Assembly: GCF_026571515.1 (NCBI RefSeq)
Contig: NW_026867195.1
Location: 1 to 64,000, forward strand
Origin: Ruditapes philippinarum
Lineage: Eukaryota
Reading direction: 5' to 3'
Length of the DNA: 64,000 bases
Shown in pieces: positions 6,240 to 52,992 of this stretch; positions within the stretch are counted from its first letter, which is position 1; every line of letters begins with the position of its first letter. The notes under the pieces are model-generated. The model had not been told where the DNA came from and searched no databases. It worked only from the letters and a program-made list of their open reading frames with translations. The translations under genes were made by a program, and so were the position numbers.

Positions 6240-9200
6240 AAAGGAAAAGTGTATGATTAAAACCCATAGCTTTAGGAGTTACAGTAAAACTGAGTAAATC
6301 CAACACGAAAAGGCCTTAGAGTGTTTTTAACCCAAAACCAAACCCCCGGTTTTCAAGCCTGGGGGAAACATTAAGATGATAAAAACCTAGGTTTTGATAG
6401 GTCTTTTAAGTATTTTCTTAAATGAAGTCAATTCGGTTCTACCCCGGGGGAATACAATAAAAGCTGACCAACCAACGTGATGGGCCATTGTATTTGTTCA
6501 TAACGAAAACCAATTTGTTAAAACCCTTAGGGGAAAAGTCAAGCTGACAAACCCTCAGGGGATAGACCCCTAATTTTTGTAGTTAGTAACGAAAAGCCAA
6601 GCATGGTTCACGCCATAGGGAAAACAGTCAAGCTGACCAAACCCACGTTAAAAGGCCTTACGAGAAGTTCTTTACGGATACCAAAACATGGTTCTAACCT
6701 CAGGGAATACATTTAGGCTGACAAGCTGACCATACCCACGGTGATAGGCATTTCTAGTAGTTCTTAACGGAAAACCGAGCATTGCTCTAGCTTCAGGGAA
6801 TACAATCAAGCTGACCAAAGCCACGGTGACAGGCCTTTCTAGTAGTTTGAAACGGACAACGGACAACGAAATCTGGTTCAAGCCTCAGGGAATACAGTCA
6901 AACAGACCAAACCCACGGTAATTTACCATTGTTCTAGCCTCAGGGAATATAGACAAGATGAACAAGCCCACATTGGTTGGCCTTTTTAGTTGTTTTTAAC
7001 GAAAACGAAGCCCGGTTCCAGCCTCAGGGACCAAACCCACGATGATAGGCCTTTCTAGTAATCGAAACGAACAACAAATCCTGGGCTTTCCTCAGGGATG
7101 TCTGTCTGGCTGACAAAGCACACGGTGATTAGTCTTTCAGTAGTTCTTAGCGGAAAACAAAGCCCGATTCTATCCCCAGGGAATACAGTCAGGCTGACAA
7201 AACCCACGTTGATATGCCTTTCTAGTAGTTTTTTTTCAGAAAGTCAAGTCCGATTGCAGCCTCAGAAAATACAGCCAAGCAGACAATACGTACAGTGATA
7301 GGGCCTTTAAAATAGTTCTTAACGGAAATCGAAGCCCGGTTCTAGCCTCAGGGTATACAATCCAGCTGACCAAACTCACGGTAAAAGGGTTTTCTAGTAG
7401 TTGTTATTGAAAGGCCAATCCCGGTTCATGCCTCAGGGAACAAAGTCAAGCTTAACAATCCCAGAGGGATAGGCTTTTCTAGTAGTTCTTCTCGAAAATA
7501 CAGTTAAGCAGGCCAAACACACGGTGATAGAATTTATCAGTAGTTCATAACAGAAAACCAATCCCGTTTCTAGCTTCAGGAAATACAGTCTGACTGACCA
7601 AACCTTTGGTTATAGGCCATTCAAATAGTTCTTAAAGAAAAGTCAAGCCAAGTTATAGTGTCAAGAAATGCAGTGAAGCTGATCAAACTCACGGTAGTAG
7701 TCCTTTTTAGTTGTTCTTAACGGAAAACTTAAGCCCGGTTCTATCACCAGGGAATACAGTCAAGCTAGTGTAACCCACATCGATAGGCCGCTTTTCTAGT
7801 AGCTTGTAACGAAAAGGCAAGGATGGTTATAATCTCAGCGAATAAAGACAAGCTTTTCAACGCACGGTGATAGGCTTGTTATTCTTAATGGAAAACTAAG
7901 CCCTGTTCTAGCCGCAGATAAAACAATCAAGCTGACCAATCCCACGGCTAAAGGCCTTACGAGAAGTTTTTAACGAAAATCCAAAATGGTTCAAGTCTCA
8001 AGGGATTCAGTCAAGCTTACAAAACCCACTGTGATAGTCCTTGTTAGTAGTTCTTGAAGAAAAACCCATGTCTGATTCTAGCCTCAGGAAATACAGTCAA
8101 TCTGTGTAAACCCACAGTTATAGGCCTTTACAGGGGTTCGAAACGAACGCCAAAGCCCTGTTATAGCCTCAGGGAATACAGTCAGGCTGACGAAACCCAC
8201 GGTGATAAGTCTTTCAAGAAGCTCTTCACGAAAAGCGAAGTCCTGTCGTAAGCTCAGAGAATACAGTCACTCAGACCAAACCCATAGTGAAAGGCTTTTG
8301 AGGTAGTTTTTAACGGAAAACTAAGCCCGGTTTTATCCTTAGCGAATACAGTAAAGCTGATAAAACCCACGGTGATAGGCCTTTCTAGTAGTTGTTAACG
8401 AAAAGTCAATCCAAATTCCACCTTCAGGGAACACAGTCAAACTGACTTAACCCACGAGGATAGGCTTTTCATTTAGTTCGTAACGGAAAGAGCAGAATGG
8501 TTCTAGCCTCGTGGAATACAGTCAAGCTGACCAAACCCACGGTGATAAGAAATTATAAGTTCTAAAGGGAAAACCAAGTCTGTTTATAGCCTCAAGACAT
8601 ACATTCAAGCTGACCAAACCCAGGTTGATAAGCATTTCTAGTAGTTCGTTTTTAAAAAAAAACAGTTCTAGCTTCAGGGAATACAGTCAAGTGGATCAAA
8701 CCCAGGGTGGTAGGCCTTTTTAAAACTTTTAATCGAAAACCAAGCCCGGGTTTAGCCTCATGGAATACCGTCAAGCTGACCAAACCCACGGTGGTAGGCC
8801 TTTTTAGTAGTTCTTAAGGAAAACCCGGTTCTTGCCTCAGCAAACAAATTCAAACTGAGCAAACCTACGGGGATATGCCTGTCAGGTATTTCTTAACGAA
8901 CAACCAAGCCCGGTTCTAGCCTCAGTGAATACAGTCCAGGTAACCAAACCCATGATGAACGGCCTTTCTAGTAGTTAGTAACAATTGGCAAAACATAGTT
9001 TAAGCCTCAGGGAATACAGTACAGCTAACCTAACCCATGGTGATAGGCCTTTCCAGGAGTTCTAAAGAAAAACCATACGTAGTTCTAACCTAAGAAAGTA
9101 CAATCAAGCTGACCAAACCAAAGATGAAAAGTCTGTCTAGTAGTTCATTACGGAACACTAAGTCTGGTTCTGCTCTCTAGGAATACAGTCGAGCTGTGCA

Positions 9201-9830
9201 AAATCACGTTGATAGGTTTTTTAGTAGTTTTTAACGAAAAGCCAAGCCCGGTCTTAGCCTCAAAGAATACTGTCAAGCTGTCCAAACCAATGTTGATAGG
9301 CATTTTTAGTATATTCGTAACGGAAAGCCAAGTTCAGTTCTAGACTCAGGAAATATAGTCGTCAAGGTGACCAAATCCATGGTGATAGGCCTTTTTAGTA
9401 TTTCTTGACGAAAAGCCAAGTCGGGATTTTGCCTCAGGAAATACAGTCACGCTGACAAAAGTCACGGTTTTAAGACGTTCTAGTGGGTCTAAACGAAACC
9501 AAGAACGGTTCTAGCGTCAAGGGATAAAGTCAAGGTGACCAAACCCAGGGTGAAAGGACATTTCAGTAGTTCTTAAAGAAAAACAAATCTCGGTTTTAGC
9601 CTCAGGGAACACAGTCAAGCTGACCAAACCCAAGGGGATATGACTTTCTAGTAATTCTTAACGAAAGGCCAGGCCCGGTTCTAGCCCCAGGTAATACAGT
9701 CAAGCTCATCAAAACCATGGGTCTTTTCCCGCAGTATTTTTACGGAAAATCAAACCCGGTTCGACACTTAGGGAAAACTGTCAAGCTAACCAAACCCACA
9801 GTGATTGTCGTTTCTAGTAGTTTGTAACGA
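6240..9830 (+). repeat. Tandem satellite array, ~84-85-bp monomer, ~42 diverged copies
   Basis: Approximate consensus CCTCAGGGAATACAGTCAAGCTGACCAAACCCACGGTGATAGGCCTTTCTAGTAGTTCTTAACGGAAAACCAAGCCCGGTTCTAG; period e.g. 8681 to 8765. Confidence 0.95.
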
Positions 9831-10228
9831 AATGCAAACTGAAGTTATTTTTTTTTGTAGACAATGATCATATTTAGTATTTGAGACACGGACAATGTTG
9901 TTGAATTTGCTCGACGCTACGTAACATCGCCTTTGCGCGAAATATTTGTTTATGTTATACGCGTATGATAGTAAAGGTATTATCCAACAATGTTGACCAA
10001 GCACTTCATTAACTATCGTAAAGGTCATTTGAATATGCACTGAACATATCGATATATTTGCTAACTTCACTCTTTAGTGAGGCGTGGTGTATTATTATAG
10101 ATGTCGGACTACCGATCTGAAGGTATCTGGTTCGATTACTTACCCTTACCAACCCAAGATTTTTTTAATTAACTTATAAGAATGTATTTTAAATCGTTAA
10201 ACTACACCCGGTTTTATAATATTTTTAA

Positions 10229-14324: not shown

Positions 14325-14910
14325 TCAACTTATCAATGTATTATGTCAGTCTTCCATTATACGATGTGTATCTATTATTATACGATGTGCATTTATGAAT
14401 ATATTATGTGATAGCATCATTATATAATGCCAACTCATCAATATGTTATGTCAGTCTTTCAGTATACGTTGTGAATCTATTATTATGCGATGAGCATTTA
14501 TAAATAAATTATGTGTCAGCATCATTATATAATGCCAACTCATCAATATGTTATGTCAGTCTTTCAGTATACGTTGTGAATCTATTATTATGCGATGAGC
14601 ATTTATAAATAAATTATGTGTCAGCATCATTATATAATGCCAACTCATCAATATGTTATGTCAGTCTTTCAGTATACGTTGTGAATCTATTATTATACGA
14701 TGAGCATTTATAAATAAATTTTGTGTCAGCATCATTATATAATGCCAACTCATCAATATGTTTTGTCAGTCTTTCATTATACGATGTGAATCTATTATTA
14801 AACGATGTACATTTATGTATACATTATGTGATAGCATCATTATATAATGCCAACGCATCAATATGTTATGTCAGTCTTTCATTTTACGATGTGAAACTAT
14901 TATTATACGA
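14325..14910 (+). repeat. 105-bp tandem repeat (5 x 21-bp subunits), ~5.5 copies
   Basis: AGCATCATTATATAATGCCAAC at 14413, 14518, 14623, 14728 and 14833. Confidence 0.95.
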
Positions 14911-16791
14911 CCGCAGCTTTCTATGAAGTGCAAACATCATAATATCGTGTGCTTCTGTCACTATACAGGGTACTGTCTATTTTTGAACGTAATAAAATCC
15001 CAAGACTTGAGAAATCACGGGCGGTTTTAAACTGCTAACGAATTGTTAAGTTGACTCTTTATAAAGCCGATTCCACATAACACAGTATTGTTTTGACTCT
15101 ATATAAGAATGGTTCCACATAATATATTCGTAATTGCAAAATATAATGACTGACATCATTTAAGAGCATTAACATCATACACTGTTACCATGACTCTATA
15201 TAAAGATGGTACTACATAACATATTCATCAATGCACATCGTATAATAAAAGATTGACCTCATATAAGGACACATTGGTATTATATATGGTTAAGTTGTCG
15301 CTATATAAAGGCGATCCTACAAATATATAGCATTATTTTGACGCTATATAAGAATGGTTCAACATAATATTCGTAATTGCACATCATATAATGAAAGGCT
15401 GACATCATATTAGGACAGATTGACATCACATACTGTTGTAATGACTCTATATAAAGATGATTTCACATAATATATTCATTAATGCACATCGTCTAATGAA
15501 CTATTGCCATCATAATTAGTATGGCTCTTTTACACCATGTAATAAGTTGACTGTATTTAACTTGTTAAAGGATTGTTTCACATAAAATACTGAAAATTGC
15601 ACATCGTATAGTGATAGATTGATATAATATAAGGGAACATTTACATCATATAATGTTACACATAATATATTCATTATTTCACATCTTATAATGACACACT
15701 TAAATCATATAAGGACAGATTGGCATAATATATTGTTATTTTGACCTTATATAAGGATTGGTCCACATAATTTATTCAAAAATGCACACCGTATAATGAT
15801 ATCATATAAAGACACAGTGACATCAAATATTGTTCAATTGACTATATATAAGGATGGTTCCTCATAATATATTCATGAGTGCACATTGTATAAAGTAAAG
15901 GTTGACTCGATATATTGCTATTTGGACATTACAACGTTCAGGTTTATAATTATATGACAGTCAAGGCTTTCCATAATTTAGTCCTAACGGTATTTAGGTT
16001 ACTCCATTTAAGGGTGCGTCTGCATATTATCGGAATTTGAATAATGAATGTGTATCATCGTAGTGGTTCAGTTGCACTGCCACTTAAAAAATAGTTTGCA
16101 ATCTTAGGCTCGAGTCTGTCATTTTATAGTAATGATGCTGTTATATAGTTTATTCTCCTTTTTATTTACTTTGTATTTTGTATGATTATTTAAATCAATA
16201 TTGTTCTTCTAAATTTCTATTTCTTGTTTCGTTTTTATTTATCCCCACCTTTTTATGAAGAAAACAACTATAAGTCAAGTTATTACATTTTTTAAATTTT
16301 ATTAATTAAATTTTTAAATATTCTAAATACATTACGATTACAAAATAGCAAAAATTTGAATACACTGTATATGGATCAATATATAACACACTTTCTTTAA
16401 TTATGTATTATTTATATTGCTAATAATCCCTTTATTGTCTTTGACGTTTTCCCCTATCTTTAAACATGTGCATATCAATTCGTGTACAAACATATTCATG
16501 CATTTGAAACAATTTAAAACAAAACCGGGCAAATACACTCAAATTCAATTGTAACTAACCATACTATCAAAGCACATGAAATATGATGCTTACGTGTTTC
16601 ATTTATTAGGGTTCAGACTGCTTTACCTATTTTTGCATTCTAATTTATCTCTGTTATGTAAACAAAGGCTTTAATTATCATCCTTGGGCAGTACCCCCTT
16701 TTCATATCAATAACATTATATTAACACAGACAAAGTTTATGATTTGTACAGAGATATATTAACATTTTTTGTGTTGTGTAGAAGGTAGGGG

Positions 16792-24869: not shown

Positions 24870-26040
24870 AGAGAAGATGATTTTTTAAGTTTTTACTATA
24901 TACATATAAGGGAAACCTATGGCCCCGGGGTGGGGCTAATTTTGACATTAGAGGCAAAATTTGAACAACTTTGGTAGAGTACCTATAGATAATATTATTT
25001 AAATATTAAAGCTCTAAGCCTTGTACCGTCAGACAATAAGATTTTTTGATGTTTTACTATATGTATATATTGAAATCAATGACCCCCAGGGCGGAGGCAG
25101 TTTTGACCCTAGGGCTATAATTTGAACAATCTTGTTAGAGGTTTGCTACACAATGTTTCATGAAAAATATCTAACCTCTAGCATTTGTCAATTGCTAGAA
25201 GAATTTCTTTTAAAGATTTTACTGTAAGTTTTTACTATATACATATAAGGAAAACCAATGACCCCCGGGGCGGGGCCGATTTTGACCCCAGGGCTATCAT
25301 TTGAACAATCTTGGTAGAGGTCTACCAGACAATGCCATATACAAAATATCTAAGCTCTAGGCCTTTTGGGTCTTTAACAAGAAGGTATTTTAAGTTTTTA
25401 CTATATGTACATAAAGTGAAAATCAATGACCCCCGGGGCGGGGCCGATTTTCACCCCAGGGCTATAATTTTAACAATCTTGGTAAGGGTCTAACAGGTAA
25501 TGCCTTATGCAAAATATCTAAGCTCTAGGCCTTTTGGGTCTTTACAAGAAGGTATTTTAAGTTTTTACTATATGTACATATAGTGAAAATCAATGACCCC
25601 CGGGGCGGGGCCAATTTTGACCCCAGGGCTATAATTTGAACAATCTTGTTAGAGGTCTACCAGACGATGCCTTATGCAAAATATCTTAGCTCTAGGCCTT
25701 TTGGGTCTTTACAAGAAGATTTTTTTAATTTATTCTTATAATTCCTTTTGGTTGCCATGGCAACCAGATTTCTGCATGGAATGGAATTATTTGAACAACT
25801 TTGGAAGCCCTTTACCCAAGGATCAATCCTGCCAAGTTTAGTTGAAATTGGACTAGTGGTTTTTCACAAGAAGATTTTTTAAGTTCACTATATAATCTAT
25901 ATAACACACACACAAACACACACACGCACACACACACACGCACGCACGCACCAACACACACACATACACACACACATGTGAATCGCTATATGCCACCGCA
26001 TCTATGCCACCGCATCGCAGATGCTGCGGTGGCATAAAAA
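24870..26040 (+). mobile_element. HINE (second family) with ~167-bp core repeats, 5'-truncated, intronic
   Basis: AATCAATGACCCCCGGGGCGGGGCC at 25421 and 25588; (CA)n-type tract; terminal hairpin TATGCCACCGCA...TGCGGTGGCATA followed by an A run. Confidence 0.85.
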
Positions 26041-27924: not shown

Positions 27925-28260
27925 AGACTCTTCATGGACGGCACTGGAAAGTGTAAGCTGCAGCCCACTGCCCTAGCATCGGTCTAAGCAGAATTCAAAA
28001 TTCAAACAGTGGCGTATGGTCCCAAAGTAAAACATTGGTGTGCCCTAGACGAGAAAAGAGGGGGGGGTCGCTAAATTTAATGTCATTTTGAAAAGTAAAC
28101 CAATGTTATGAAGCCTGTATATGTGTATATGACAGACAAAAAAACGTCAGAAACAAACCATAAAACAGGCAACATATCATAATGGTGATATTACAGTGTT
28201 TAGGTCGGAATTCTGGAACCAGTCACTTAGAAAAGAGTGTAATTTGATAAAAGAGTTTGC
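27925..28260 (+). repeat. Unclassified dispersed repeat, copy 1 (others at ~40640-41030 and ~44590-44770)
   Basis: Shared blocks GGCGTATGGTC-CAAAGTAAAA, TGCCCTARACGAGAA and TTATGAAGYCTGYATA in the same order. Confidence 0.65.
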
Positions 28261-39060: not shown

Positions 39061-39902
39061 TTCTGTTCTTCCGGTTTTGAGATCTCACCTACATAACGGG
39101 TAGCAACTCTTACATCTGTGTGATACCAGACTTTGTATTTTTATACTTAAACAATTAACGATAATTTTACTCGGAAATTAGGAAAAATAAACTTATTTAA
39201 GGTTGTTCTACTTGATCATATGTTAAAATTGATACATGACTATGAAGGCGCCTGACCTATAAGAATGGGGAACTTCACATTTTTTTACCGACAACCTAAC
39301 TTTACCGCTTCATTTTGGTAGGTCATTACCTTGTTTGTACTTGTAACTTCTCACCTAAATGAAAAATCGATATGAACAGTAATACAGTCTAAAAATTGGT
39401 CAATGTCTATGATACTTATATCAATATGTAACAATAACAATTAATAGTGACACCATAAGATTATCGTTAATTTATTTTTATTAATTTTTTAAATCTATTA
39501 TTATAATTTTAATTTTATTTTTTAATTTTACTTTCTGTGAATATTTATTACTCCATCTGCTCTAAACTATAATCTGATTTTTTGGTCCTGATTTTTTTCT
39601 GAACTTTAAATTGTTCTTCTTACCAAGGAGGTTTTCATGGCCATTTTAGTTCAATAAATGCATAATATAGGGAACATCTTGCATATATGGTAAATCTGTT
39701 TAATTTTAGTTTAATTAGTTTAAAATTATTCACCGCTATATTTGTACTAGTATGCGACTTAAGAGATAGATGGTAATAAAACTGCAATATCCTTGAAAGT
39801 GAAAAATACATTATTTTGCCCTTTCTATTTTTAGAAAACAAATAGATAATTCCTTGAATAGGAACACAACAGAACATAAAAATAATGGTCGTCATGTTAC
39901 TT

Positions 39903-42855
39903 CACCGTAGGTAACGTGTTACAGTATCGCGCTTTCTGGTAACAGTATAGAATTTTCAAGATGGAGGATTATTTGTGGGGAAGACGGGTAGGTGATTTTA
40001 TTCCGGTCCATTCCGAAGTTCAGTTTCTAAAGGATGTGCTTGTGCTTTGCTTGTAAGAAACTGGATCCGGTATCTAGTCATGTATTCCTCAGACCCTACA
40101 ATGCAGATTTATCTCTATATTGTCTCATAAATATGCAGATTTGACAGTTTGAAAATTTGAATCGAGAGACCAACGCATTTATCTCCAATTCCGACATTAT
40201 TTAAGCATGCCTACAAAAATTAAACCAACGTTAGTCCTTTGTGTTTAGAAACGTTTATAAAAGTAAATGACCAGTTAAACCTATTTTCTTGTTCGTTAAA
40301 TGCGTTTGAAAAAATAAACAATGTTGCAGTATAGAGCGAGGTAAGTTTTGCAGGGTTACAGTATAGACCGAGCGACTTTGATCCGATTTTGTTACAGTGT
40401 ATACCCATATTTCGGTTACAGTTTAGATACTTGCCAAATTTCAAATAAAATGTGTGAATCAATTATTTTTTTTATAAAATAGCCAATACTTTTCTATTTA
40501 ATATGTTCTTGAAAGCTGTTTTATTGCCATTTTTTTCTTCAGCAGAAAAGTTACAGTTTAAAATACACATTATAATGCGTATTAGTTATAAAATAGAGAA
40601 AAGGAAAGTACAACACGGCAAAAAGACTCGATTTGTTTGAGCCTGTTCATAACTGCAAGCTACCGTCCACGCCTCCTAGCACCAGCTTAAGCAGAATTTA
40701 ACATGAACTGGTAAACTTAAATAAGAATTATTTTAACATCTGTATATGTGTTCATATGGCGGCTACCATGGAACCTTCATTGTGACACATTAGTGCCATT
40801 TCATGAAAAGCGGCATATTGTCCCAAAGATTAAAAAGTTGCGTGTGCCCTAAACGAGAACACAATGGGTGAAACTAAATAAAATAGAATTTTTGAAAGAG
40901 AATCGGAGGTTATGAAGTCTGCATACCACAGAAAAACTGTCAAAAGTCACGATTAAAAAGCAGGAAACATACCCTAAGGGTGATTAAACAGTAATCAAGT
41001 GAGAAAAACTGCAACCTTAAAACTTATTTTAAGTATTTAAAAGGGGTGGTTACTTCTTTTTCACCTATATTAAGGTCCTTTGTGAAACATTTCAGACAAC
41101 AGCGGGCACCTGACTAGAACCACCGACCTTCCGTAAACTAGCTTGACAGATTCCTCATATACAAGGAATCCAACGTCATGGCGGAATTCAACCGCAGCAG
41201 TAAAAGAAAGATGATTTGAAGTCGGCAACCTTAACCCGATTCTGCCACTATTATGTACCTCCATCAGGCTCTATGGAAAATATATTGTAATTGTCTGACC
41301 TTTTTGTTAGATATTTTCCTTTTCAGAAACATGAAAACTTCCATACAGAATGTCTGAAATAAATAACACGACTATTAATTCAATAAGAACAAAATAATTT
41401 CCATTTCAACAAGGAGCATTCAAAATGACGCCAGGGTCATGATTTTATCTTTCTTTGCAAAATTCTTCACAGCAAATGCTTTTTGGTTCGGGGGAAGAAT
41501 GATTTATATTGCCTTTTTTAAAAATCTATATTTTTGGTTTTGTATCCCAGATTGCAACCGAAACCATTCCCAGTTTGAACAACTTTGGTAGAAATTCATG
41601 TGCACTTCATCAAATCTGGCCAAGTAGTTACTGAGCGGATGCCATTGGACACACATGTGTACGACAGACGGACGAATAGTCATCGGGCCAATAAGCTTAG
41701 ATTTAAAAGTGTATAATATAATTTATACATTTAACCTAGTATATTATCATATACCAATTATCATTTCCGTAACCAACACATATTTTGCAATTATGCTTGT
41801 CATGTTATAAGTTAAGTGCTCATCGCCCTATTATTAAAATAGAAAATATCCTGACCATTGAAACGATGTAACTTAATGTTATGAGGTCGTTGTATAGAGG
41901 CCAGTGGAAAATGTTACACAAAGCCTTATTTGAAATTAGAGTAACATGTAGAATTTCAGTGGTAAAAATGATATTTAAAAACGGAATTTAACAATCATTT
42001 TAATGATGCTGTTTAATTATCCTTATTACTATGTATATGCATTAATAAGGTGTCAACATATCACATCATTTACTCATGAAACGTAAAATGAATTTGGATA
42101 TGGAAATGAAATTTGGTAGGCAGGACACATCTGATGAAACCTAAATGGAAACAATACTCGCAATATTTATCGCTGCTACCACTTCAGTCCTGCAGAAGAA
42201 TATTAACACAACTTACTGGTCATTTTTTAAAGAAGTTTCGTTAAATTGCAGTGGAAAAAAAAATATTTGAGAATTTGTAAAAATAAAATAGAATGACCCG
42301 TATATAGAAAATATCGATGTCTAAACTGTAACCGAAATCTGGGTATAAACTGTATCAAAATCAGATAAAATCGCTAGGTCTATGCTGTAACCCTACACAA
42401 TTCACCTCGCTCTATACTGTAACATTGTTTATTTTTTCAAACGCATTTGACGAACAAGAAAATAGGTTCAACTGGTCATTTACTTTTATAAACGTTTCTA
42501 AACACAAAGGACTAATGTTTTGTAGCTTTATTTTTTGTAGACATGCTTAAATAATGTCGGAATTGGAGAAAAATGCGTTTGTCTTTCGATTCAAATTTTC
42601 AGTCTGTCGAATCTGCACATTTATGAGACAATATAGAGATAAAACTGCGGTGCAGGGTCTGAAGAAATATATATAACTACATACCTGATCCAGTTCCTTA
42701 TAAGCAAAGCACAAGCACATCCTTTAGAAACTGAACTTATTGTAGTATGGACCTGAATAAAATCACCTACCTGTCTTCCCCACAAATAATCCTTCATCTT
42801 GAAAATTCTATACTGTAACTGGAAAGCGCGATACTGTAACACGTTCCCTACGGTG
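39903..42855. mobile_element. Non-autonomous long-TIR DNA transposon with Transib/RAG-like end signature, 2953 bp
   Basis: Inverted arms 39903-40427 and 42320-42855; termini CACCGTAGG...CCTACGGTG; 5-bp direct repeat TACTT at 39898-39902 and 42856-42860. Confidence 0.8.
41075..41245 (-). mobile_element. Diverged tRNA-SINE, same family as 49729
   Basis: Reverse complement contains GGAAGGTCGGTGGTTCTAGTCAGGTGCCCG. Confidence 0.75.
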
Positions 42856-43689
42856 TACTTGAAACATTTGTTTACAAACATGAAGTAATGTGATATTTGT
42901 AAAAAATACATCATTATATTATGTTTACATATATGTTTTCTTGTAATCAAATTTCTATTTTGATGTGCATGTATTCGACATAATAGTTAAACATCCGTGA
43001 CTTAATGTTATTTAAAAAAACTATAAAGTTGAATACATTCTTTCAACAGTCAAATGCCTTTTTTTAAAATGAATTGTTAATTTTGTTAATTTAATCTAAA
43101 TATTTTCTGGGACAGTGTCCCAGATATTTTCATGTGTAGGTCATAACAATTGAGTAAAATTTAACATTCTGATGGGGCTGGGGGTATGAAACTATAATAA
43201 TGCTTCAATACTGATTAAACTTGGCACGAATGTTGACTGGACCATAGCCTTGCTCAATCTAAGATTTCCTGTTACCATGGCAACGGGGGACGTGTCAAAA
43301 TTGCCAAAAGTTTTGCGTTCCAAACGCTGAGATCTCTCAATGGATTAAGATAGAATAAAAGGGCTTTTCATCGTTGTTTACACGTTGCATTAACAGCCAT
43401 TTGAGGCCATATTTATCCTGACACAAGTCCTCAATTTTCTCGGCGATAACGGTTGTTACTGCCCCCTTCAAACCCCCAAACAGAATAAGGCACGTCCTCT
43501 CTCTGGCACCCCTTGCTGTATCTTTTTGATAGGGCTCGGCCCAATAAAAGTGATCTTTTTAACAACATTTTTTTACACAAACGAAAAACATTGTTTGGAG
43601 TCTAAATAGGCAATTGTTTTACAGTTTCAGTTCAGTTATTATTAAACCAAGGCATATAATATGCAACTGGTTATAACAAAAAACAAACA

Positions 43690-44490: not shown

Positions 44491-45957
44491 ATTTGAGGGT
44501 GAAAAACCGTCAAAAGACGTCAATATGAGATAAAAGGTTAAATAATATTTAATATGAAATCATAATGGTAAAATTTTGAATTTTGAAATATCAGCAGATG
44601 GTTATCATGCAACCTTCAACGTGACCATTCCATGAAAAGCGGCGTATGGTCTCCAAGTAAAATAACGCTTATGCCCTAAACGAGAAAACAATAGGCGGAT
44701 TTAAACAACATTACATTTAAAAAATCGATCGGAGATTATGAAGCCTGCATATCACAGATATGACGTCAATAGACAAGGTTGTGTAGATTATAGGGAATAC
44801 TGGAACAACCCAACTTGAACATAGCCAAATAGAAAGAACTTAAATACCACAAGCATAGCAGCATAAAATATTGTGCTGAAAGATCATTTAGTATCGAAAA
44901 TATAACATCCTATTGAATGTACGGCGACTTTTTAAGGCCCTCACACGACACACAATGAGAACTTTCAAGAGGGATAAAATAGAGATTAATTGAGAATACC
45001 TAAAGAACGCACAAAACGACACAACTTAAAATACTGATTGATGTTTTAAAGGTAATTTATATACACGTAAGTATAGAACTATTTAGACAATCAGACGGAA
45101 AGATGTTACAGAAAACAGTTTATAGCTGGTGAAACTTGTGCTTTTCTTCCATGATGATAAATCAACCGCCATACAGGCAGTCCTTGCCCTAAATGATTAT
45201 TATTCGAAATTTGAAGTCTAACTTTAGTTGAACAAAAATTCTCGAAACGAATTTTGGCATGAATAAATTCGCAGATCTTAAACGACTTTACTTGATTTTA
45301 TTGATTTTATAAATCAAAAGTGTGAGTGAGTACAAAGGCTTCCATAAGAGTAGGAGGCTTCAATGTACAGTTTGAGCTTCTCAGCAAACAATTAACCGTG
45401 TATCAATCAATGTCTTCTTACACAGAGACTTGTGCGTCATCCAACACCTATGATTTCTGATGAGTAATATGAAACTGATTAACAAACTTGAAGCTCAAAT
45501 ACCCACTTAAACTTCATTTCTTTACGGTCTCCTATTTTCAAATTCGACCCTGGAAAATTCGAAACTAAGAAAACGAAACTGTTGCGTGCATTCTATTTTA
45601 AAGAATCGTGAAGCGATGCAAAATTAATTTCAAGATGAACTCGTTTCTTGTTTTGTTTTGTTTCATTTTGTTTTTGCTGTTTTTTAATGAACTAAACTGA
45701 ATTTAATATTTGTTGACTAATCTAACTACAGTATCGTTCGATATATATTCAAACTAAATGTCGGCGCTTAACGGTTATTTCAGTTATCTCTGATTTATGT
45801 TATTGTAACTTAATTAGTTTATAAAAAGATGAACTTTCAATCAAATGACACAAAATAATCAAGGGCGTTTACTTGTTTAAGTGTATGTCGGATAAATTTG
45901 TGTCAATGTGCGGTAAAATTATCAGAAAAGATCATGTCTTCTTCCTATTTCCGGACC

Positions 45958-49728: not shown

Positions 49729-49991
49729 GGGGCGTCCGTGGCCGAACGGTTAAGGTCGTCGACTTCAAACCACTTGCCCCTCACCGCTGTGGGTTCGAAT
49801 CCCGTCAGGAACTTTGAATTCTTTCATGTGAGCCAGCTAGCTAATGGAACGTCGGTGGTTCTACTCAGGTGCCCGTTCGTGCCTGAAATAATGCACGGAA
49901 GGTCACATGAGGTCTTCCTCCACCAGTAAAGCTTGAACGTCGCCAAATGACCTATTTTGTGTCGGTGTGACGCAAAACCGTAACAAACAAA
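49729..49991 (+). mobile_element. Full-length tRNA-derived SINE with TSD
   Basis: A box TGGCCGAACGG, B box GGTTCGAATCC, central domain, (CAAA)n tail. TSD CATCAAAGTTT at 49715 and 49992; single site in copy B at ~57670. Confidence 0.92.
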
Positions 49992-50726: not shown

Positions 50727-52992
50727 TTTTTATGCCACAGCAGCATCTGCGATGCGGTGCCANNNNNNNNNNNNNNNNNNNNNNNNNNNNNNNNNNNNNN
50801 NNNNNNNNNNNNNNNNNNNNNNNNNNNNNNNNNNNNNNNNNNNNNNNNNNNNNNNNNNNNNNNNNNNNNNNNNNNNNNNNNNNNNNNNNNNNNNNACTTC
50901 AAAAATCTTCTTGTGAAAAACCACAAGTCCAATTTCAACCAAATTTGGCAGGATTGCTCCTTGGGTGAAGGGCTTCCAAAGTTGTTCAAAGTATTTTATT
51001 CCATGCAGAAATCTGGTTGCCATGGCAACCAAAAGGAAATATAAGAATAAATTAAAAAAATCTTCTTGTAAAGACCCAAAAGGCCCCACCCAGGGGGTCA
51101 TTGATTTCCACTATATGTACATATAGTAAAAACTTAAAATACCTTCTTGTAAAGACCCAAAAGGCCTAGAGCTTAGATATTTTGCATAAGGCATTGTCTG
51201 TTAGACCCTTACCAAGTTTATTCAAATTATAGCCCTTGGGTCAAAATCGGCCCCTCCCCGGGGGTCATTGATTTTCACTATATGTACATAAAGTAAAAAC
51301 TTAAAATACCTTCTTTTAAAGACCCAAAAGGCCTAGAGCTTAGATATTTTGCATAAGGCATTGTCTGGTAGACCTCTACCCAGATGGTTCAAATTATAAC
51401 CCTGGGGGTCAAAATCGGCGCCGCCCCGTCCCAACAGTTGGTCATAATAAAAGAGAAAAAAATATTTAAGAAAATGAAAATTTTCAACGCTTCTTGCTGA
51501 GGGTAATGTGCTTCTTCCAGTTGGCATGGACAGAGCCACCCTTGGAGTTGTTGAACTTGGGACCCTTTCCAAGATCATTGCTTTTCCTTATATGTATATA
51601 GTAAAAAATTATAGTAAAAACTTCAAAAAAAAATTCTTCTAGCAATTGACAAATGCTAGAGGTTAGATATTTTGGATGGAACATTGTGTAGTGAACCTCT
51701 AGCAAGATTGTTTTCTAGCAAGATTGCCCCAGGGGCCATAGGTTTTCCTTAAATGTATATAGTAAAACTTAAAAATCATCTTCTCTAAATTTACAAAGGC
51801 TAGAGTTAAGATATTTTGCATGAAACATTGTGTTGTGAACCTCTAGCAAGATTGTACAAATTATAGCCCAGGGGTCATTGATTTTCAATATGTACATATA
51901 TTAAAAATTAAAAAATCTTCTTGTTTGAAGGTACAAGGCTTAGAGCTTTGATATATGGTATATAATATCATCTATAGGTCCTCTACTAAAGTTGTTTTAA
52001 TTATGCCCCTAAAATTGCCCTGCCCCATAGGCGATAGTTTTCCTTATATGTATAAAGTAAAAACTTGAAAAATCTTCTTTTCTGAATTGACAAAGCCTAG
52101 AGGTTAAATATATGGCATGAGACTTTGCAAAGAGAGACTCTATCAAGAGTGTTCAAATTATAGTCCTGGGGTCAAAATTGGTTCTGCCCCGGGGGTCATT
52201 GATTTTCATTATGTACATATAGTAAAAAAATATTTTTGTCTGAAGGTACAAGGCATAGAGCTGTGATGTTTGCAATATAATATCCTCTATAGGTCCTCTA
52301 CCAAAGTTGTTCAAATTTTTCCCCTGGTGTCAAAATTATGTACACATAGTAAAAACAGAAAATAAAACAAATGCTTTCTGAATGGGAGAAAACTACAGCT
52401 TAGATATTTGACTTGAAATGTTGTTGGGTGGACCTGTATCAATATTGTTTTGAATTTAACCCTTGGGTTAAAATTTTGCCGTGCCCAAGGGGACAGTGAC
52501 CTACTTTCTTGTCCTTTGATGTACAGCAATGAAATTTTGACCATGTGCACAGTTTTAGTTTTAAAATTGAACTTTGATATCAGGTGACCAAGATTTTGAT
52601 TATGTGACCTACTTTCTTGTCCTTTGATGTACAGCTATGAAATTTGAACCATGTGCACAGATTAAGATGTAAAGTGAACTTTGATATCAACTGACCTAGA
52701 TTTTGAGTGTCTTACTGTGTTGTACTTTGATGTAGTCATGAAATTTAGGCTGTGTGAAATATGACCTTCACCACCAAATTCACTAGACTCAAGTGCATTG
52801 ATATATTCCTACTCTTTTATTGGATTAACAATAGATTTAACAACTAATCTGATAATAAGAATTAGATAGGTGAGGGATCTATGCATTTTGACAATATTCA
52901 ATTGTATAGAAACAAAAAAAACTGATCCTACACTACTATTTAGTGTTGTATTAATGCGGTTGCATAGCATTTTTCTAAATTGCAATCTTGTT
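50727..52992 (-). mobile_element. Full-length HINE (167-bp core family) spanning an N gap
   Basis: Reverse complement of the 24870-26040 family. Terminal hairpin at 50731-50760; AACAAG head at 52992 with subterminal TATGCAACCGCA. Inserted in a T-rich site that is empty in copy B (~58325-58350). Confidence 0.88.

Follow-up and report, generated by a model that had tools for sequence, protein, structure and literature searches.

By which enzyme was an element moved that holds no transposase gene of its own? This question is raised by a 64,000-nucleotide stretch of the Ruditapes philippinarum genome (NCBI RefSeq assembly GCF_026571515.1, contig NW_026867195.1, positions 1 to 64,000 of the forward strand), hereafter the window, in which an element with long inverted arms occupies positions 39903-42855 (2,953 bp, termini CACCGTAG...CTACGGTG). 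Its CAC ends and 5-bp target site duplication (TSD) led an initial annotation to assign it to the Transib or RAG-like transposons, either as an unusual family with long terminal inverted repeats (TIRs) or as a composite of two short elements that had captured host DNA. The analysis presented here indicates that it is very probably a non-autonomous internal-deletion derivative of a long-TIR DNA transposon of about 10 kb, likely moved as a unit by a transposase with a predicted P-element fold and a lambda-exonuclease (YqaJ) domain between the catalytic residues D1 and D2.

The element and its family in the genome

The inverted arms, CAC termini and exact TACTT duplication described initially were all borne out. 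The left TIR (39903-40427, plus strand, about 525 bp) and the right TIR (42320-42855, minus strand, about 536 bp) share 89.0% identity over 537 columns, and the exact TACTT copies lie at 39898-39902 and 42856-42860. A GTTACAGTATAG-like motif, reported as present about six times per arm, was located six times in each: on the plus strand of the left arm at 39918, 39939, 40323, 40355, 40391 and 40415, and on the minus strand of the right arm at 42321, 42345, 42380, 42412, 42808 and 42829. Each arm has two copies at its tip and four at its inner end, and they are likely protein-binding sites. The commonest arm 9-mer has a count of 6, versus 2-3 in four shuffles, and the motif cores are better conserved, with a mean majority frequency of 97.6% versus 93.3% across 90 arms.

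Concerning the genome as a whole, the arm search of the 1.41-Gb assembly gave 1,226 candidates, and the exact 17-nt terminus occurs 719 times (control, 0); among the first 100 listed termini, 34 convergent pairs account for 68. For the TSD, 59 stretches were picked from the top or exact-terminus matches, a sample that thus leans towards young copies, and they provided 52 two-ended copies (window copy counted). An exact 5-bp TSD was present in 43 of the 52, compared with 5 of 2,652 cross-paired flanks, so the TACTT duplication is not due to chance. None of these copies had an exact TSD of 6-10 bp, and the family TSDs have 22% GC and no fixed sequence.

Furthermore, the copies have their interior in common: most of its bins are covered in 43-49 of the 51 other copies, and coverage drops to 26-39 in three short stretches. 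When 90 arms were placed in a tree, left arms formed one clade and right arms another in each of the two non-autonomous subfamilies, and 19 columns were diagnostic; hence, the arms travelled together and part of the difference between them was inherited. Together with the 719 termini and the 43 exact duplications, the shared interior upholds the alternative of an unusual long-TIR family.

Some individual copies deserve a separate description. Both arms of one locus (L070, G000:C1258) cluster together in the tree, likely through inter-arm gene conversion. A 360-bp mini derivative (L090:202-560, G000:C621) consists of 326 bp of arm followed by a 37-bp inverted tip minus its last four bases, and a 121-bp subterminal segment is present in three to four tandem copies in L045 and L066. 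Two other large copies were considered as transposase carriers and rejected, their extra size being made up of inserted retroelement-like open reading frames (ORFs). A 13-kb family copy (G000:C837:282054-295138; L053, L054) bears an insertion of about 10 kb with frames like those of reverse transcriptases (RT) and tyrosine recombinases (YR), probably a nested YR retrotransposon, and the copy at G000:C788:126180-134143 (L052) has a LINE-like (long interspersed element) insertion with endonuclease-like and RT-like frames.

The autonomous sister element and the origin of the interior

An autonomous sister element, J1 (G000:C10957:78877-89162), is 10,286 bp long, has the TSD TTTTA and has arms that are 99.6% identical. 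Its minus strand holds an open frame of 1,458 codons, which is accompanied by a convergent ORF encoding five C2H2 zinc fingers. J1 differs from the L037 copy by 9 silent and 7 replacement codons, and from the decayed C6095 copy by 16 and 58, respectively. In contigs of X15 and X17, putative RNA runs of two different studies whose RNA status is deduced from the GT-AG joints themselves as no listed run is recorded as RNA, two GT-AG introns downstream of the long frame are missing, and these joints are not listed for the DNA run X5. The spliced join adds 103 amino acids (aa) that resemble the C-terminal tails of many homologues, bringing the J1 transposase to about 1,550 aa.

Blocks of the window copy align to both ends of J1 with 71-85% identity, and they follow each other in the order of left arm and subterminal DNA, SINE-like (short interspersed element) relic and acceptor, AGA junction, first 120 bp of the transposase, and right end. 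From these alignments, the interior reads as the two ends of a J1-type element brought together by a deletion of 7.6 kb, with two repeats inserted in addition. On the left, subterminal DNA common to J1 (40428-40559, plus strand) extends the arm, with 82% identity to J1 over element positions 1-657. It is followed by the first of the inserted repeats (40564-41034), an unrelated high-copy piece which most non-autonomous copies have and which does not align to J1; it has 10 matches outside the transposon family among the loci examined and a very high contig depth, and it likely entered a founder once.

The decayed SINE-like relic (41077-41250, minus strand) shows 72% identity to J1 1081-1300, upstream of the zinc-finger ORF, and since J1 carries the same relic there, it was inherited and not newly captured. 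Its part at 41082-41248 is about 70% like free copies such as the one at 49738-49896 of the window, in agreement with the SINE relic noticed initially; we take it to be a SINE from its tRNA-like head. The Rfam search of the window element found nothing real. A putative splice acceptor preceding the zinc-finger ORF lies at 41310-41327 (plus strand), together with the junction of the internal deletion, as seen by comparing the window with J1 1300-1360 and 8900-8990, and the junction has an AGA microhomology at 41325-41327.

On the other side of the junction, 41325-41445 (minus strand) contains the 5' end of the transposase ORF in decayed form, together with the putative acceptor region upstream of it, with 77% identity to J1 8920-9042. 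The interior had been described as free of transposase; no transposase ORF is present, but this decayed piece of 120 bp is. Right subterminal DNA common to J1 follows at 41463-41744 (plus strand; 71% to J1 9419-9747). The label of HINE-like relic given to part of the interior was not confirmed, as 41460-41745 matched one family member among the loci examined and nothing else in the window.

The second inserted repeat, of 555 bp (41745-42299), is private to the window copy and flanked by GTATAT direct repeats; the interval 41750-42300 is covered by 0-2 of the 51 other copies. It derives from another dispersed repeat of low copy number, of which it is a truncated piece, and its 6 other genomic matches (83-95%) lie outside the family. 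It is the only private segment, and the element holds no unique host cargo of the kind proposed at first. The interior repeat that had been noticed twice more nearby was found again at 44625-44758 and 28005-28121. In sum, the window copy is an ordinary dead, non-autonomous derivative.

The transposase and its place among known transposons

In the 1,458-aa frame, Pfam recognized only YqaJ (PF09588, aa 524-669, E = 2.4e-7, over the cut-off), and neither the protein nor two profiles matched any sequence in the Protein Data Bank; only fold searches were informative. An AlphaFold model of aa 300-1458, built on a 34-sequence alignment (predicted local distance difference test score 83.9), matched lambda exonuclease and P transposase in Foldseek. 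With VIA-align, the model scored Z = 30.7 against P transposase (6p5a; root-mean-square deviation 3.0, 323 residues from model position 9 to 1157, on both sides of the insertion), compared with 13.3 for HzTransib, about 11-12 for RAG1 and 9.9 for Hermes, and its residues 213-418 matched the lambda and LHK exonucleases (3sm4, 3sz4) with Z of about 15. A second model, of the C-terminal half without the exonuclease, was used for an unbiased search of 48,161 chains, in which P was the sole match above 8 (Z = 19.2); this half alone scored 7.3 with Transib and 6.3 with RAG1. Hence, a P-element fold is predicted for the transposase and a lambda-exonuclease fold for the domain inserted in it.

The residues were surveyed in 69 homologues, those of at least 1,150 aa among 180 proteins. 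D1 is conserved in 68, D2 in 68, E in 62 (5 gaps) and the DxxH motif in 68 (D336, D872 and E1417 are the J1 catalytic residues), whereas for the exonuclease the D, E and K are conserved in 67, 66 and 67, and all four residues of its PD-(D/E)xK set in 62. Both sets are complete in 53 homologues, and 9 are without a DDE residue (6 through gaps). The distance from D1 to D2 is about 540 aa, whereas 12 ordinary P transposases from this genome have 99-101 aa there; the exonuclease is located within the gap, and the DxxH aligns with that of ordinary P proteins.

Several features are shared with the Drosophila P element and THAP9 (6p5a, 6pe2), namely the predicted catalytic fold, the D-D-E order, the DxxH and the CA..TG ends, as well as a cut-and-paste family with internally deleted non-autonomous copies and a spliced transposase gene (PMC7776569). 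However, the TSD is 5 bp instead of 8 bp, outside the 7-8 bp of the P superfamily. An insertion of about 440 aa with the lambda exonuclease lies between D1 and D2 and another of about 330 aa after D2, and the stretch from DxxH to E, considered here for the GTP cofactor of the P superfamily, spans 167 aa compared with about 205, that is, around 40 aa shorter. The N-terminus carries a single C2H2-like finger or is basic, and there is a separate convergent C2H2 ORF; Pfam gave no THAP match in the 1,458-aa frame, outside which the first exon of J1 lies, or in 33 homologues. Since the P-type TSD is missing and THAP was not matched, the family is filed here as a P-like lineage and not as a canonical P member.

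The long TIRs are nothing special here, as ordinary P elements of this genome have TIRs of 600-690 bp. In Galileo the TSD is 7 bp. Galileo shares long TIRs with repeated outer and inner motifs, for which transposase binding has been shown, and differs by its THAP domain, with no nuclease insertion reported in the available text (PMC3688188). KolobokE (PMC9587614) and ISL2EU (PMC4482050) are also DDE transposons with a lambda-exonuclease/YqaJ domain, and Kolobok has a C/DxxH as well, but their nuclease is outside the core, whereas here it is inside the catalytic core and goes with a non-specific 5-bp TSD and CA ends. Neither the TTAA TSD, the RR..YY ends and the nuclease downstream of the DDE domain of KolobokE, nor the YqaJ in a second ORF and the GG ends of ISL2EU, are found here. 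No description of this arrangement was found in the literature, where Repbase, Dfam and subscription journals were outside the search and may already name the family; for lambda exonuclease and DNA transposons since 2015, only the KolobokP paper was found. The lineage is thus apparently undescribed.

A Transib or RAG-like non-autonomous element, moved by a RAG1-family transposase, would have the same CAC..GTG termini and 5-bp TSD as the published RAGL/Transib signature, and RAGL/ProtoRAG (6pqx, 6b40) also has two convergent genes (PMC7204232). The likeness of the model to HzTransib and RAG1 is consistent with this idea as well, but it is the weaker one: the sole transposase found within these termini fits P far better (no search of the genome for a RAG1 or Transib gene was made), it carries the DxxH, and the second ORF encodes C2H2 fingers and is not RAG2-like. 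Moreover, the terminus CACCGTAGGGAAC has no AAA where the protostome RAGL consensus has it, at positions 8-10, and beyond CAC the two differ (PMC7204232); CAC starts also occur in the ordinary P elements of this genome. The initial assignment to Transib/RAG is therefore very improbable.

Even less credible is the composite, in which two short independent elements would flank captured host DNA and be mobilized together. Isolated partial arms do occur at 3 of 7 one-ended loci, and the arms differ by about 9%; yet the convergent pairing of the termini, an interior common to nearly all copies that maps to the ends of the autonomous element, and arm differences which are inherited left/right differences all argue for one unit, and the arms have no inner terminus or TSD of their own.

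The derivation from a P-like long-TIR transposon has to be set against several observations. The exact 5-bp TSD is absent in 9 of the 52 copies, and the seven one-ended loci (three at a contig end and one whole element whose second end was missed by the pattern) include three truncated arms without interior. With arms only about 87% like those of the window subfamily, J1 counts as a sister and not as a proven parent; the direct parent of the window copy was not found, and neither the start codon nor the first exon of the J1 transposase was found. As for the protein, 7 of the 69 homologues are without the full exonuclease set while keeping DDE. PF21787, which reflects P sequence likeness, is marginal (12 of 34 sequences at E up to 1, best 0.0012), and profile-profile comparison with ordinary P proteins gave a probability below 1%, although DG, DxxH and the last E align nonetheless. 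With such marginal sequence likeness, the P assignment is based on the predicted structure and on the order of the motifs. In favour of the derivation, a contig of the DNA run X12 joins 39902 to 42864 and has no element, which means that at least one haplotype lacks the insertion, through a pre-insertion state or excision. A look for the empty TACTT site had been suggested initially; this junction comprises 16 letters versus 3 for a clean empty site and is not a proven pre-insertion site, and no element-free junction was among the pieces listed for the other three runs examined.

More distant relatives of the transposase are also found in this genome, with 39 scored matches among 274 candidates. 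The ten with long open frames (about 30-39% identity) are all in TIR elements of 8.6-14.3 kb. Their arms could be aligned over 428-653 bp in 8 of the 10, the ends are CAC in seven, CAG in two and CAA in one, an exact 5-bp TSD is present in nine, and a convergent zinc-finger ORF in eight. A repeated outer and inner arm motif was seen in several and was clearly above shuffles in one. In ordinary P loci, CACAGG ends could be called in 4 of 11, all four with an 8-bp TSD, and several arms measure 600-690 bp. Long arms and CAC are therefore common to the nested-exonuclease clade and ordinary P, and the distinguishing trait is the 5-bp TSD.

Regarding these ordinary P-type elements, four loci (G000:C9393, C9423, C2708 and C1184; L174-L183) are 8.7-12.6 kb long with TIRs of 600-690 bp and 94-99% identity; three of the four show CACAGG ends and 8-bp TSDs, and they are young and Galileo-like. 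Another locus (L152:2-1345, G000:C11950) presents a candidate PIF1-like helicase frame, judged by the appearance of its motifs, which is convergent with a P-type transposase frame and overlaps its end.

The observations on TIRs and TSDs refer to this genome, the eight metagenome loci being too short for both ends. Named homologues of the transposase come from molluscs, an annelid and amphioxus (Mercenaria, Solemya, Mytilus, Pinctada, Owenia, Batillaria and Branchiostoma belcheri) and are annotated just as hypothetical or YqaJ proteins. The family is a large one: a C-terminal profile retrieved 1,954 clusters (50% identity) at E up to 0.001 and 520 at 1e-30. One cluster in the ESM Atlas, at 0.83, is a lead only. 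In viral contigs, 57 pattern matches included 0 confirmed relatives. The matches in prokaryotic genomes are three contigs of 3-4 kb in metagenome-assembled genomes of the symbionts Sedimenticola and Thiodiazotropha (L215-L217), probably host DNA carried over.

Elsewhere in the window there are tandem repeats, including an 85-bp array at 6617-9832, whose main block has about 28 copies at 65% match, and clustered arrays of 105, 146, 80 and 97 bp on a 21-bp sub-period at 14326-15893. Units of 167 bp in opposite orientations are located at 25225-25725 and 51082-51428, and presumably they are comparable to Helentron-associated central repeats.

Proposed mechanism and significance

The TSDs and the fold imply that the element transposes by cut-and-paste as one unit, with a stagger of 5 bp. 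Either the transposase or the co-encoded zinc-finger protein would bind both the outer and the inner cluster of motifs in each arm, as suggested by the higher motif conservation and the Galileo precedent (PMC3688188). The DDE site would then nick the 3' ends and join them to target phosphates 5 bp apart, while the nested exonuclease domain likely trims the 5' DNA ends that arise during excision, since it keeps residues of the lambda-exonuclease 5'-end-binding pocket. In lambda exonuclease, these residues grip a 5' phosphate. In Tn7, a DDE enzyme (TnsB) acts on the 3' end and a PD-(D/E)xK nuclease (TnsA, a separate endonuclease) on the 5' end. This is a possible analogy only, as here a 5'-end-binding exonuclease fold would be nested in one polypeptide.

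At nearly even odds, the likeliest substrate of the exonuclease would be the non-transferred strand of the transposon ends, where trimming would replace the 17-nt staggered cut of P elements. The donor break, resected to favour gap repair, is a close second candidate with a somewhat lower probability. P elements are cut at the 5' strand 17 bp inside the end, and the mechanism of this cut was stated to be unknown in a 2020 review (PMC7776569). No P-type footprints of 16-17-nt TIR stubs were found here by pattern search, where three sites with close stubs did not hold TIR sequence; this is weak evidence and fits the proposal.

Alternatively, the family assignment may be right while the exonuclease takes no part in transposition chemistry, or acts on the empty donor site, where resection would drive gap repair, restore a copy and produce internal deletions; this has a substantial probability, if below an even one. 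Deletion derivatives with microhomology are abundant here, and lambda-type exonucleases resect breaks for recombination. KolobokE and ISL2EU also carry a domain of this kind, located outside the core, whose function is unknown (PMC9587614, PMC4482050). On the other hand, the constant position of the domain within the catalytic RNase H fold suggests an action near the transposon end.

At a wider level, we propose tentatively, as a reading with well under even probability, that these elements may form a superfamily-level animal lineage, sister to P and represented in molluscs, annelids and amphioxus, with a single chain combining two nucleases (DDE for the 3' ends and the nested exonuclease for the 5' strands) and a CAC and 5-bp signature that would have been reached independently of Transib/RAG.

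CAC ends with a 5-bp TSD are widely used to call Transib or RAG-like elements. The present family pairs that signature with a P-type enzyme, so gene-less mollusc elements called on their ends alone may be misfiled. Furthermore, how P-type transposases cut the non-transferred strand is stated to be unknown in the 2020 review (PMC7776569), and so is the role of YqaJ for ISL2EU (PMC4482050). Both could be tested by single mutations in J1, because this intact, spliced copy has the nuclease inside its catalytic core, nearly identical arms and hundreds of natural substrates. If the superfamily-level reading is true, an intact, transcribed and very young copy would be at hand for such tests.

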